Source of the DNA: Chitinophagales bacterium
GTDB taxonomy: Bacteria > Bacteroidota > Bacteroidia > Chitinophagales > CAIOSU01
Assembly (NCBI GenBank): GCA_018401955.1
Contig: JAGYJT010000006.1
Location: 10,351 to 74,350, forward strand
Length of the DNA stretch: 64,000 nt
Direction of reading: 5' to 3'
In this document: positions 42,462-46,065 of the stretch, piece by piece
Numbering within the stretch: the stretch's first letter is position 1
Layout of the letters: every line of letters starts with the position of its first letter
The notes under the pieces: generated by a model
The model's input: the letters and a program-made list of their open reading frames with translations, nothing else
Databases searched by the model: none
What the model was told of the DNA's origin: nothing
Position numbers and translations under genes: made by a program

Positions 42462-42566
42462 GTGTTTTTGATTTTCGATTTACGAGGTACGATTTACGAT
42501 TGTGTACCCTGTTAACTCTTTTACTTTTCAATTCATTCGCACCTTGTGCTTCTTTTTTTTTGATTT

Positions 42567-42616
42567 CCGGTATTCGGGCCCTGTATTCTTTCGAACCAGC
42601 AGGGCCCGAATACCGG
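42567..42616. repeat. Perfect 17-bp inverted repeat between prx and cysM
   Basis: CCGGTATTCGGGCCCTG / CAGGGCCCGAATACCGG, 16-nt loop. Confidence 0.85.
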
Positions 42617-42712
42617 TCAATCATGACAATTATTGACAAACCATTATTTCAAATGACAGATATGAGATGAGAGATGAAAAATATTTTTGCTGACACACTC
42701 ACCTCACTGTCG

Positions 42713-43381
42713 TTAACTTAGTTCTTTTTTTGAGAGGTAGAAATCTACTTTCTCGTAAGTAGCATTCGCAAGGCGCTCTTCCACTTCTACCAAGGTTTTT
42801 GGTGGCGGCACAATTACTTTATCACCTGGGCGCCAGTTGGCTGGTAGAGCAACGCTGTGCTTATCGGCCGTTTGTAATGCCTCTATAACACGTTTAATCT
42901 CGTCAAGGTTGCGGCCAATATTCAATGGGTAATAAATTATAGCACGGATAACGTTTTTTGGGTCGATAACAAACACGGCACGTACGGTAGCGGTTTGGCT
43001 TTCGCCTGGATGAATCAATCCGTATAATTGCGCCACTTTGGTATCCAAATCGGCCACAATCGGGAAATCAAGGTATACACCTGTTTTCTCCCTAACGTTT
43101 TGTACCCAAGCTACGTGGCTATGAATGCTATCAATGCTCACGCCAATCAAATTGGTATTGCGGGCGGCAAAAAACTCCTTTTCGCGGGCAAACTCAATCA
43201 GCTCGGTGGTACATACAGGGGTAAAGTCAGCAGGGTGAGAAAACAGGATGGTATACTTATCCTTCTTGAAATCGTAGAAGTTTAAGCTGCCCACGGTGGT
43301 AACGGCAGTAAAGTTCGGGGCGGCATCGCCAATGCGTGGGATGCCGTTTTGTACTACTGGGTTTTCGGTTGCTGTTGACAT
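42713..43381 (-). CDS. 1-Cys (Prx6-type) peroxiredoxin
   Basis: LFSHPADFTPVCTTE, YPLNIGRN, PANWRPGD. Confidence 0.93.
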   Translation of the reverse strand: MSTATENPVVQNGIPRIGDAAPNFTAVTTVGSLNFYDFKKDKYTILFSHPADFTPVCTTELIEFAREKEFFAARNTNLIGVSIDSIHSHVAWVQNVREKTGVYLDFPIVADLDTKVAQLYGLIHPGESQTATVRAVFVIDPKNVIRAIIYYPLNIGRNLDEIKRVIEALQTADKHSVALPANWRPGDKVIVPPPKTLVEVEERLANATYEKVDFYLSKKELS

Positions 43382-43443
43382 GGTATTTTGTTTTTTACTG
43401 GCTATTGATGGCCTCGTTTCTTGTTTCGATAATGTTGTAAATG

Positions 43444-43476
43444 AAAAAAGCCCTCCCGCTTTGGCGGAAGGGCTTT
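43444..43476 (-). terminator. Attenuator terminator upstream of prx
   Basis: Minus strand AAAGCCCTTCCGC-CAAA-GCGGGAGGGCTTTTTT. Confidence 0.88.
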
Positions 43477-43518
43477 GTATAGCTTTTAGTGTTTGGTTGT
43501 TGTCTTATCTATCCAATA

Positions 43519-43623
43519 TTACCTACACAAATACAATGCACCCTGTCCGCCAGAGGCGAAACAACAGCAGCAACAACACATCATGTTGTTCATCGCTTGG
43601 GTGATATTTGTGTGAGTATTCAT
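43519..43623 (-). CDS. Leader peptide MNTHTNITQAMNNMMCCCCCCFASGGQGALYLCR (not in ORF track)
   Basis: ATG at 43623, ATG ATG then six Cys codons, TAA at 43519; terminator follows; TAGATTAG -7-like box at 43632-43639. Confidence 0.82.
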   Translation of the reverse strand: MNTHTNITQAMNNMMCCCCCCFASGGQGALYLCR

Positions 43624-43737
43624 TTCGGTTGCTAATCTATGACATAATAACCCAATTGTCAATCTTTGGTTCAATTAGTTCTGTTAAATAATTTAGGTAA
43701 AACAGTGTTAGGTGTTGATAATCAACGAGAAAAATTA

Positions 43738-44154
43738 TTAAAAATTAGCGCCGCTAAATATACTCCATATAATAATGCCTATTAAAGCAAGCCCAATAGC
43801 CAACGGCACCCATATTTTACGCTTGGGCATACTTTCGTGGCCAGGAATGTATTGGTCGTGTAGATATTTCCCCATAACCCACGATGTGGCTAAATTGATT
43901 GGGATGCCTACACCTCTGGGTATGTCAATTACAAATTGAAGCGCAACTAATGCTACCATAAATGCAATGCTGCCTAATAATACTTTAATAGCAATATCGT
44001 TTTTACCGACTCTATTAAGGTTTTGATAAGCCATTATACCTCCAAAAATGGTGGAGAAAAAGAAGGTAAAACCCGCCACCGCACTACTGGAGTATATTTC
44101 TGGTGCTGGGGTTTCATCTATAGGTGCATCAAGTATAGTGTTGTGCTGTTCCAT
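43738..44154 (-). CDS. Hypothetical membrane protein
   Basis: IYS..AVAGFTFFFSTIFGGI, four hydrophobic segments; TATCTTTG -7 box at 44169-44176. Confidence 0.8.
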   Translation of the reverse strand: MEQHNTILDAPIDETPAPEIYSSSAVAGFTFFFSTIFGGIMAYQNLNRVGKNDIAIKVLLGSIAFMVALVALQFVIDIPRGVGIPINLATSWVMGKYLHDQYIPGHESMPKRKIWVPLAIGLALIGIIIWSIFSGANF

Positions 44155-44220
44155 GGTAGCCTTTTGGGCAAAGATATACCATTTGCCTTTTAGTTGTAAT
44201 GTGTAAGCAAAGCAAAAGTA

Positions 44221-46065
44221 TTAATATACCAGCACCTTTTTACGAGAAATTGCTTTGCCGTTGATAGTTGTTAGTAGATACATGCCAGTACCTGTGCTAA
44301 TTGGCAAGGTTAGCGTGTTACATACATTGCAACTGGCAACTACTTTGCCTGTAATATCGGTAACCGTTACATCAGTATGAGTTGAGAGGTTAATGGCGTT
44401 CCCTGCTTTTACTGGGTTAGGATAGAAGCTTACCTCATTGGTAGGTTCCATAACTTCATTTAAGCCAACATACAAAGCACCTTTGTATCGGTGGCTCGAA
44501 AACCAGAACCAGTCGGGGTTATTGGTTACAAAGGCAACCAATTCCTGTGTTTGAAATTGTTGATAGGTTAGCGTTCTGCTCCAAACATCCGTTACTCCAT
44601 CAATCCAAAGGATATCGGTATAATTATTAGAGTCTAATGATAGGGTTACAGCACTAGAATCTGGCGAGAAGCTGATATTTATGTAAGGCCTTAAATCATC
44701 AAACGGTAGTTGATTGTCAAAATATGGATAAAAACGATAGGTTAGGAACGAGTAATCTTGATTGATGGCAAACACCATGGTGTTGCTGTTATCCCAAACC
44801 CCCAACTTGGGCACACCATTGTCATTTGACAAATCAAAATTAGTGGAACCGATGTTGCCAAAAGAGAGGGCGTTGTTAATTTCTGATATTGAGCTAGCAT
44901 AGCGGTTTTGTAGCATAACCCCGCCGTTACCCATGGCAGTACTTTGCCCAAGCACATCATATAATCCCTTGCGAGTGGTTCTGATTGAATCGCCTGAAGA
45001 TTGTATAAATACCTTGTAGCCGGTGTTAGGTTTTGCCCTACAGCCTCCATTATCCCATAATGATTTTACCAAGGTGTCTTTATTGGCATACAAGTATTGA
45101 AGGTCGTGGGCTGTATTTACCCAAACCGAATCATCGGATTGATGGCCCAAATGATTTGATTTGCTCAATACTTGCACGCTACTGGTTACCCATTTGGTAC
45201 CATTAAAAGTTGCCGTAATTTCAAATTCTGAATCGGTATTACGGTTAAATATGCCAATTTTCACAGTGTCTACTGCTGTTTGTATGGCTGCAATAGAATT
45301 TGGGTGGTAAAAATCGATAATATTATTGTCAAACGTATCTAGTGTGGTGTAGCTGCAAGTAGATTGGGGTGTGCCAGCCGGGCTTATGCCCCAAGCAGGG
45401 TCTGCAGCACTCCAATAAAAATTTGTATTGTGATTAGCTGATACCCAGTTAACGGTAGGGTACGTAACGCCACCAGTTTGTTGGCTTCCAAGGAATGCAT
45501 ATCCCAGGTTGTTGGGCATTACATAAAACTCGTGTGGGTTGCCTATGCCAAAGGTATCAATTACCTCAAAATTTCTATCGCATACATAACCAACTACAGG
45601 TTTAATGCTGTAGTCTCGTATTTCGGCCCAAGTAAAAAGTTCTTCCTCTGGCCAATATCTAAAATTCCAAATAGGAAAATTTGACCCATCGGGTACTAAA
45701 CGAAACGCAGCGGGTATCTTTTCATATACATCATATAGTACCATCATTTGCTCAAGTACAAATGGAGAGCTAGCAGCCCAAAGGCCATACCTTACTTTGG
45801 TTTGTGCTATCGCCTGGTCGTTATAGTTTATTTGAAACGGAAATATAACACTGTTAGAGTCTTCTACAAGCGGTGCATAGATAGTTTGGGCATAAACTTG
45901 CGCATTTAAGCATACTGCTATCACTAGCATTATAACGTACTTGACGCAATTATCTATAAAACTATTTTTGGCGCAAGGCGATGAGAAAATGCTTAGGCTA
46001 GTTGATAATGTTACATACGCTTTTGCCAAAGGGTTTTGGTACAAAAGCAACATTTGTTTTCCCAT
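44221..46065 (-). CDS. T9SS-secreted protein, arylsulfotransferase (ASST)-like; start uncertain (may be 45930)
   Basis: NPHEF, DFYHPNSI, TAHD, WDNG, YRFY motifs reminiscent of ASST propellers; FYPNP..GMYLL CTD. Confidence 0.65.
   Translation of the reverse strand: MGKQMLLLYQNPLAKAYVTLSTSLSIFSSPCAKNSFIDNCVKYVIMLVIAVCLNAQVYAQTIYAPLVEDSNSVIFPFQINYNDQAIAQTKVRYGLWAASSPFVLEQMMVLYDVYEKIPAAFRLVPDGSNFPIWNFRYWPEEELFTWAEIRDYSIKPVVGYVCDRNFEVIDTFGIGNPHEFYVMPNNLGYAFLGSQQTGGVTYPTVNWVSANHNTNFYWSAADPAWGISPAGTPQSTCSYTTLDTFDNNIIDFYHPNSIAAIQTAVDTVKIGIFNRNTDSEFEITATFNGTKWVTSSVQVLSKSNHLGHQSDDSVWVNTAHDLQYLYANKDTLVKSLWDNGGCRAKPNTGYKVFIQSSGDSIRTTRKGLYDVLGQSTAMGNGGVMLQNRYASSISEINNALSFGNIGSTNFDLSNDNGVPKLGVWDNSNTMVFAINQDYSFLTYRFYPYFDNQLPFDDLRPYINISFSPDSSAVTLSLDSNNYTDILWIDGVTDVWSRTLTYQQFQTQELVAFVTNNPDWFWFSSHRYKGALYVGLNEVMEPTNEVSFYPNPVKAGNAINLSTHTDVTVTDITGKVVASCNVCNTLTLPISTGTGMYLLTTINGKAISRKKVLVY

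Follow-up and report, generated by a model that had tools for sequence, protein, structure and literature searches.

To our knowledge, leader-peptide attenuation has been documented mostly in Proteobacteria, cysteine is not among the amino acids of the classical cases, and the control of sulfur amino-acid genes in Bacteroidota is poorly known. Leaders with runs of cysteine codons were predicted before cys operons of Mycobacterium, Propionibacterium and Bifidobacterium, and no terminators were found with them (Seliverstov et al. 2005; PMC1262725). According to Canestrari et al. (bioRxiv 10.1101/834739), a leaderless short open reading frame (sORF) of Mycobacterium smegmatis with a poly-Cys run acts on the translation of the next gene, and the authors speak of a 'Cys ribulon'. 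A predicted attenuator with two Cys codons, uORFC-8-2, lies upstream of cysS in Rhodobacterales (Brewer et al. 2021; PMC8632094). For Bacteroidota, the Bacteroid-trp motif (RF01692) is listed in Weinberg et al. 2010 (PMC2864571), and a study of Flavobacterium psychrophilum notes 'strong clues for leader peptide attenuation' upstream of amino-acid operons (PMC9723704). Here we describe a poly-Cys leader followed by an intrinsic terminator, upstream of the genes prx-cysM-mec-cysO-moeZ of a Chitinophagales bacterium. It lies in a stretch of 64,000 nucleotides, hereafter the window (contig JAGYJT010000006.1, positions 10,351–74,350 of the forward strand, assembly GCA_018401955.1). The assembly is a metagenome-assembled genome (MAG) of 3.49 Mb in 153 contigs and is 79% complete.

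We consider the leader to be a ribosome-mediated transcription attenuator that senses charged tRNA-Cys, with a probability of roughly 0.85. This reading had been proposed in an initial annotation made from the sequence alone, and it gained support from a Cys run conserved in frame among relatives and from an antiterminator and a terminator that co-vary. The initial annotation knew of no such attenuator described in Bacteroidota. This agrees with the literature that we searched, in which no poly-Cys leader of this phylum was found; most subscription journals lay outside that search, which is no proof of absence.

Leader 1 and its counterparts in related genomes

The elements of leader 1 were located on the minus strand as follows, in the direction of transcription.

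43662–43632, minus strand: promoter-like elements, with TTGACA (43662–43657), a 17-nt spacer and the -7-like box TAGATTAG (43639–43632)
43623–43519, minus strand: leader sORF 1, 34 codons plus TAA (43521–43519), ATG at 43623, peptide MNTHTNITQAMNNMMCCCCCCFASGGQGALYLCR
43584–43561, minus strand: sensor codons, Met-Met (43584–43579) and then six Cys codons (43578–43561; TGT TGT TGC TGC TGT TGT)
43560–43546, minus strand: small hairpin TTCGCC-TCT-GGCGGA, directly after the Cys run
43551–43522, minus strand: antiterminator strand (region 2), GGCGGACAGGGTGCATTGTATTTGTGTAGG, within the 3' part of sORF 1
43482–43441, minus strand: region 3/4, with CTATAC, the terminator hairpin at 43476–43447 (AAAGCCCTTCCGC-CAAA-GCGGGAGGGCTTT) and a U-run

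The 34-codon frame with its MMCCCCCC core, the small hairpin and the GC terminator hairpin with six U residues were all found where the initial annotation had placed them. The complementarity that it had noticed between region 2 and the terminator 5' arm was also real: segment 43551–43522 paired with 43482–43464 at -23.2 kcal/mol, as good a value was reached by 0 of 300 dinucleotide shuffles, and the z score was -5.8. The 191-nt leader as a whole folded with a z score of -5.5 against 200 shuffles. Terminator 1 consisted of 13 bp (8 G-C) with a 4-nt loop, followed by six T (-22.8 kcal/mol). Its hairpin started 42 bases 3' of the stop codon of sORF 1, and about 60 nt of unstructured A-rich sequence lay between the terminator and the prx ATG at 43381. 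The antiterminator strand began 9 nt past the last Cys codon and finished at the stop codon, and the gap between the box TAGATTAG and the ATG was 8 nt.

In the proposed mechanism, transcription would begin a few bases before the ATG, and sORF 1 would be translated behind the moving RNA polymerase. With Cys-tRNA plentiful, the ribosome would pass the six Cys codons and then the antiterminator strand (43551–43522) and reach the stop codon. The antiterminator would be masked by the ribosome or, behind it, taken up again by the small hairpin, so that the terminator at 43476–43447 would form and transcription would end before prx. With Cys-tRNA scarce, the ribosome would stall on the Cys run. The antiterminator strand would then stay free, because the front edge of a stalled ribosome lies about 9–10 nt past the A-site codon (toeprint geometry), which is where the strand begins. 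It would capture the terminator 5' arm once this was made, no terminator would form, and prx-cysM-mec-cysO-moeZ would be transcribed. Transcripts past leader 1 would subsequently meet a paralogous MMCCCCC leader and its terminator before metY-metX-hom. That sORF 1 is translated, that its transcript begins near the ATG, that ribosomes stall on it and that the leader responds to cysteine are all inferred from sequence.

For comparison with relatives, MoeZ was searched in 60 related genomes; together with the own genome, 43 of 61 contained a match at E up to 1e-60. Forty of the 42 matching related genomes were fetched with up to 7 kb on either side, and G017 and G039, which had truncated matches on short contigs, were omitted. 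The cluster cysM-mec-cysO-moeZ was present in 18 of the 41 stretches (40 loci and the window region); 14 of the loci belonged to the own family and 4 to four other families within the same taxonomic order. An sORF and an intrinsic terminator preceded the cluster, or prx where present, in all 18 loci. The initial annotation had named, before any relative was inspected, a Cys run not conserved in frame as grounds for giving up its reading. Runs of 4–7 consecutive Cys codons were found in 14/18 loci and runs of three in 2/18 (L047 and L051), and the Cys codons were in frame with an upstream ATG in 17/18, while L053 had C-x-x-CC behind a TTG start. Within the run, variation was confined to the third codon position (T or C). 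Outside it, both sequence and length of the peptides varied among the 18 loci, which is the signature of a regulatory leader and not of a functional peptide. Terminators were detected in all 22 leaders examined, that of L048 being placed by hand. The small hairpin TTCGCC-TCT-GGCGGA was present in the same-genus loci; other lineages differed in sequence at this position, where a hairpin as such was not searched for.

The Bacteroidota promoter consensus is TTTG/TAnnTTTG. A TAnnTTTG-like box (at least 3/4 matches to TTTG) was located 4–9 nt before the ATG in 16/18 loci, the exceptions being L042 and L055. A TTG motif was visible in the -33 region of most box-bearing loci, which gave a layout of TTG, about 19 nt, box, 4–9 nt and ATG. 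If transcription starts the usual few bases past the box, the leader mRNA would have a 5' untranslated region of about 0–5 nt. The 'almost leaderless' mRNA of the initial annotation is supported by this spacing, short of proof.

Shortly past the Cys run, every lineage had a near-copy of the terminator 3' arm. Its duplex with the terminator 5' arm and the 6 nt upstream was compared with 300 dinucleotide shuffles per locus, and in 16/18 loci at most 5/300 shuffles were as good. The onset of the antiterminator strand was 7–18 nt past the last Cys codon (median 10), and its end was 0–13 nt before the stop codon or overlapped it. When partners were swapped across 14 lineages, the mean energy was -17.3 kcal/mol for own and -12.0 kcal/mol for swapped partners, and 0 of 20000 permutations reached the observed sum. 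No other antiterminator paired better with the window's terminator arm, and no other arm paired better with the window's antiterminator. RNAalifold on a MAFFT alignment of 17 sequences recovered only the terminator, with compensatory changes in 5/8 pairs. Because MAFFT put the arms in shifting registers, alignment pair counts were not used for the antiterminator and the energy tests were used instead.

The alternative structures were also folded, a check suggested by the initial annotation. A stalled ribosome was modelled by excluding from pairing all bases as far as 9 nt beyond the last Cys codon, with the terminator 3' arm not yet transcribed. Under this constraint, 6–13 bases of the 5' arm paired upstream in 22/22 leaders (12/13 in leader 1 of the window). 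In the free full-length RNA, the terminator was part of the minimum free energy structure of 21/22 leaders. A ribosome placed at the stop codon left the 5' arm largely free (0–5 bases paired) in 10/22. The folding supported the alternative between antiterminator and terminator. Of the 1:2 / 2:3 / 3:4 layout claimed at first, the 2:3 and 3:4 alternatives held in shuffles, partner swaps and constrained folding; the small 1:2 hairpin was genus-specific and formed no part of a general design. A long 1:2 helix in the free window RNA, between sORF codons 2–9 and the antiterminator, was rejected as a design part, as it was missing from the same-genus folds.

The operon, its second leader and similar frames elsewhere

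The genes downstream of leader 1 were assigned with Pfam and NCBIfam to a cysteine part (module 1) and a methionine part (module 2), with a second leader between them.

43381–42713, minus strand: prx, 1-Cys peroxiredoxin (module 1)
42461–41538, minus strand: cysM, CysM-like pyridoxal 5'-phosphate (PLP) enzyme (module 1)
41419–40943, minus strand: mec, JAB/Mec-like protease (module 1)
40784–40509, minus strand: cysO, ThiS/CysO-like carrier whose product, by translation, ends in AIAGGC (module 1)
40429–39269, minus strand: moeZ, MoeZ-like ThiF and rhodanese protein (module 1)
39183–39106, minus strand: leader sORF 2, 25 codons plus TAA, MNQYTQTMMCCCCCPPRQPDRYWCM
39082–39043, minus strand: terminator 2, AAACCCGGCCGGA-GCCTA-TCCGAGCCGGGTTT (39082–39051, -22.3 kcal/mol), then TTCTTTTT
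38986–37661, minus strand: metY, O-acetylhomoserine sulfhydrylase (module 2; NCBIfam TIGR01326 over cutoff)
37557–36496, minus strand: metX, homoserine O-acetyltransferase (module 2)
36279–35101, minus strand: hom, homoserine dehydrogenase (module 2)

Leader 2, which was absent from the initial annotation, sits in the 282-nt gap between moeZ and metY. Its sensor consists of Met-Met (39162–39157) and five Cys codons (39156–39142; MMCCCCC), and the two leaders have in common the MMC(n) core and the stretch GGACAGG..TTGGTGTA. No -7-like box was found near the ATG of sORF 2, either in the window or in the three other genomes with leader 2. This makes it probable that leader 2 works as an internal attenuator, reached by transcripts that start at the upstream promoter and have passed leader 1. 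It was limited to the window's genus, where it was present in 4/4 loci in which metY follows moeZ after a gap; in L041, metY begins 33 nt after moeZ with no leader between them. When a ribosome stalled on the Cys run of leader 2 was imposed in constrained folding, 10/13 bases of the terminator 5' arm paired upstream. In both leaders, tandem codons for an amino acid of the pathway stand in a short frame upstream of biosynthetic genes, and an antiterminator left free by a stalled ribosome was obtained computationally, for leader 2 in constrained folding only. With the two leaders, the eight genes would form one operon with two Cys attenuators in series, and the methionine module, having a leader and terminator of its own before metY, would need a second read-through decision.

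We take prx-cysM-mec-cysO-moeZ to encode the route by which Mycobacterium tuberculosis makes cysteine through a protein thiocarboxylate. The CysO-like carrier had one extra Cys past its Gly-Gly end (AIAGGC). Exposure of the Gly-Gly would presumably require the JAB protease encoded nearby, and the extra Cys presumably mimics the CysO-cysteine adduct. A tblastn search of the own genome with sulfite reductase and PAPS (3'-phosphoadenosine 5'-phosphosulfate) reductase from related loci gave no match, which in a 79%-complete assembly does not imply absence. For cysS, the same search recovered no more than a partial gene at the edge of a contig, and the cysM-like query matched nothing in the own genome but the gene of the operon. 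As judged from this incomplete assembly, the cysteine supply of the organism may rest on reduced sulfur and on the operon alone.

Between prx and cysM, a perfect G+C-rich hairpin of 17 bp was observed (42616–42567, minus strand; CCGGTATTCGGGCCCTG ... CAGGGCCCGAATACCGG), followed on the operon strand by an A-run instead of a U-run. The terminator scan did not report it as a terminator; it may be a processing or stability element. Upstream of leader 1, an open reading frame (ORF) of 138 aa (43738–44154, minus strand) was matched by neither Pfam nor NCBIfam, and a protein of 614 aa (44221–46065, minus strand) had a weak, sub-cutoff match to the C-terminal sorting domain of the type IX secretion system.

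When 185,579 species genomes were scanned for ATGATG(TGY)5, a pattern biased by its MM, at least 120 stretches were obtained, from which 80 loci with 82 matches were listed; the following counts are among the matches listed. Open frames of at most 90 codons contained 77 of them, and five lay in longer frames. Many were in records labelled Saprospiraceae, Chitinophagales or Cytophagales, others in records labelled Clostridia, Acidobacteriota, Chlorobiaceae, Chloroflexota, Cyanobacteria and Proteobacteria. Named isolates among them include Portibacter marinus, with the sORF ahead of sulfite reductase, and Thermoflexibacter ruber, with the sORF ahead of metY. Within the next 600 nt, 64 of the 77 short-frame matches were followed by an ORF of 120 codons or more. 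These ORFs were typed by BLAST against the window proteins (metY 14, cysM-like 4, prx 3), then 30 more by Pfam, and about 14 of the 64 were outside both. The 30 proteins comprised sulfite reductase (10), GST_C_2 (5), PAPS reductase, cysteinyl-tRNA synthetase and ABC permease (2 each), and PALP, Cys/Met PLP enzyme, LCM, DUF4395, DAO and histidine kinase (1 each); 3 had no Pfam family. By gene neighbourhood, the link of MMC5+ sORFs to sulfur assimilation is clear: across several phyla they stand before genes for sulfite reductase and PAPS reductase and before metY, cysK/M and cysS. Among the matches listed, the closest named records had the same leader peptide and a prx 88–97% identical to that of the window; they were MAGs labelled Sphingobacteriales bacterium or Chitinophaga.

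Two further arrangements were noted in this set. A record labelled uncultured Saprospiraceae (L111, 1173–1443, minus strand) showed another serial arrangement, in which two tandem MMC7-8 sORFs, both with a terminator of their own, precede a gene for sulfite reductase. Lachnospiraceae-type loci (L075, L114, L120, L131, L137 and L144) had sORFs of the MMMCCCCCM type, and GST_C_2 was the sole Pfam match downstream in the five of these six that were run (L137 was not).

An unbiased class-level sample of 120 genomes contained a MetY ortholog in 19 genomes, at 20 loci. At 11/20, metY was preceded by an sORF with three or more Cys codons in a row, and further loci (L204, L216 and L218) had mixed Met/Cys sORFs. 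In ten loci (L200, L202, L203, L204, L205, L209, L211, L212, L213 and L215), a SAM-I (S-adenosylmethionine) aptamer (RF00162, 58–87 bits) lay directly upstream of the Cys/Met-rich sORF before metY. The farthest in-frame ATG of the sORF was about 5–15 nt past the aptamer end in most of the ten and overlapped it in L205, and the frame was open for 31–52 codons up to the Cys run. At metY of other Bacteroidia, the SAM-I riboswitch may gate translation of the leader peptide and so make a two-input switch; the window itself contained no SAM riboswitch at Rfam gathering cutoffs.

We tentatively suggest, at somewhat below even odds, that these loci are part of a large class of Met/Cys-rich leaders, near-leaderless and so far undescribed: a sulfur 'ribulon' across Bacteroidota, Acidobacteriota, Clostridia and Chlorobi that would use intrinsic terminators where the mycobacterial leaders act on translation. 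In the window's genus, two such leaders in series would split the operon into cysteine and methionine modules gated by Cys-tRNA and Met-tRNA, and in other Bacteroidia SAM-I may gate translation of the leader.

Alternative readings and the genomic background

A chance origin of the Cys run was rejected on the counts in the own assembly and on the conservation in relatives. Five consecutive TGY codons occurred at only five positions in the 3.49 Mb, two of them overlapping in leader 1, one in leader 2 and two within long genes, where they lie opposite runs of Gln. When the own genome was scanned for sORFs that combine an amino-acid run with a terminator, 43 candidates emerged, among which leaders 1 and 2 were the only Cys leaders. 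A His-rich sORF, MKTTQHSHHHLLPLVG, with a terminator (-19.6 kcal/mol) was found just upstream of hisG-hisD on the same contig, outside the window (C110:2507–2557, plus strand; L195). It is likely a histidine leader-peptide attenuator, as judged from this arrangement, and since it precedes hisG-hisD the organism would use leader-type control elsewhere too. Thr-rich and Leu-rich candidates had unrelated neighbours (a VIT/VWA/TonB_C protein and a Na/sulfate symporter) and were dropped as chance, so that of the other candidates inspected the His-rich one alone fitted. Rfam at gathering cutoffs detected no family in the whole window, and only rRNA and tRNA in 9 related loci. On 42500–44500 with E up to 10, nothing significant was found; the best hit was Phe_leader at 19 bits (cutoff 55, E = 5).

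The Met codons before the Cys run raise the question of what is sensed. They may also count, so that the leader would respond to either sulfur amino acid, or their ATGs may be the true starts, placed at the run; we regard this as possible, though as the less probable account. Met was enriched in the three residues before the run, both in 12 cysM-leader lineages, with same-genus duplicates and L046 dropped (9/36 against 10/215 elsewhere; Fisher 3e-4), and in the 11 metY leaders of the class-level sample (10/33 against 19/356 elsewhere; Fisher 3e-5), but the Fisher values are overstated as the lineages are related. Several metY leaders mix M and C (for example L201, L207, L216 and L218), leader 2 precedes methionine genes, and some sORFs among the listed ATGATG(TGY)5 matches open directly with MMCCCCC. 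That set was selected for MM, however, and is unusable for the Met question; moreover, a stall sensor would be expected to have more than one or two Met codons, and L042, L045, L047 and L055 have no Met near the run.

Two other readings dispense with a ribosome that reads the run for cysteine, and both are much less probable. The UGY repeat could be an RNA element bound by a protein or another RNA that chooses between antiterminator and terminator, much as the TRAP protein acts by binding on the trp leader RNA in Bacillus, and a triplet repeat could in principle serve as a protein-binding array. Several observations make this very improbable: the Cys codons are in frame with an ATG in 17/18 loci with the stop codon just after or within the antiterminator strand, the third codon position alone varies, and run and strand are about 10 nt apart, as a ribosome footprint would require. 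Furthermore, like sORFs with unrelated terminators precede unrelated sulfur genes in several phyla, and a His-codon sORF stands before hisG in the own genome. Still less probable is that sORF 1 encodes a functional, metal- or redox-active cysteine-rich micropeptide and that the hairpin is merely its terminator. Short Cys-rich peptides do exist and sORF 1 adjoins a peroxiredoxin gene, but what is conserved is the RNA complementarity to the terminator, not the sequence or length of the peptide outside the run. The distance from the terminator to the downstream biosynthetic genes is also only about 60–140 nt, and a sigma-70-type scan of the window found no minus-strand site between terminator 1 and prx (the interval was not searched in relatives).

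Attenuation by a ribosome reading Cys codons remains the preferred reading, and several results weigh against it. The start codon of sORF 1 is predicted, and three more in-frame ATGs precede the Cys run. L055 (18/300) and L053 (93/300) fail the shuffle test. L046 (G014) has an sORF, MINKNFVRCRFNIFEGEGL, with a single Cys codon, yet it has kept the antiterminator and the terminator (0/300 shuffles); it may represent either a decaying sensor or a changed specificity, and L047, of the same genus, has three Cys codons. In the window's genus, 7–10 bases of the 5' arm were still paired with a ribosome at the stop codon (10/13 in the window). Because the arm stays paired there, termination in this genus would depend on kinetics or on the small hairpin, which in the folding model is a likely way to re-sequester the antiterminator strand. 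With no ribosome, 7–11 of 12–13 bases of the 5' arm paired upstream in same-genus relatives, against 3/13 in the window. The plain duplex test was also weak for leader 2, for which 71, 11, 261 and 10 of 300 shuffles were as good, because its CCGG palindrome-rich arms raise the shuffle background. On the other side stand the elements themselves, their conservation, the co-variation of antiterminator and terminator, the spacing and the association with sulfur genes, all of which are observed.

Comparison with known attenuators

The window leaders combine a known design with cysteine as the probable signal, a Bacteroidota host, a terminator-based switch and two leaders in series. The complete design for cysteine in Bacteroidota, with a co-varying terminator and antiterminator, would permit a simple annotation rule: a Cys run, about 10 nt, and a copy of the terminator 3' arm. 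The serial leaders and the Met codons beside the run point to a graded control of cysteine and methionine genes from a single promoter. Bacteroidota start translation without Shine-Dalgarno pairing.

With the classical attenuators of Proteobacteria (trp, his, leu, thr and pheA), the leaders share a short ORF with tandem codons for the end product, antiterminator and terminator hairpins of which only one can form at a time, and an intrinsic terminator ahead of the first gene, with the position of the ribosome as the deciding factor. They differ in the amino acid sensed (cysteine, and methionine perhaps as well), in the host phylum and in the presence of two attenuators in series within one operon. 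Unlike in the classical cases, the sORF begins 4–9 nt past the -7-like box, which leaves no room for a Shine-Dalgarno leader, and no covariance model matched (Phe_leader remained at 19 bits against a cutoff of 55).

The actinobacterial poly-Cys leaders (PMC1262725; bioRxiv 10.1101/834739) resemble the window leaders in having a poly-Cys short ORF as the first cistron of cysteine-metabolism operons, in (near-)leaderless starts, which here are predicted from the -7-like box, and in a co-ordination of loci via tRNA-Cys, which here is proposed. In contrast to them, the leaders described here have a strong, conserved intrinsic terminator and a co-varying antiterminator, and the sequences are unrelated. 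For the alpha-proteobacterial uORFC-8-2 (PMC8632094), ribosome-mediated attenuation is likewise predicted, and this motif too has Cys codons and a terminator; it differs in having its two Cys codons inside the first stem, in preceding a tRNA synthetase gene, in its restriction to one order and in being a prediction only. Within Bacteroidota, Bacteroid-trp (PMC2864571) and the clues from F. psychrophilum (PMC9723704) are proposals of leader-type cis-regulation for amino-acid operons, which in the passages concerned do not mention cysteine, and to these the window leaders would add a pair of cysteine attenuators.

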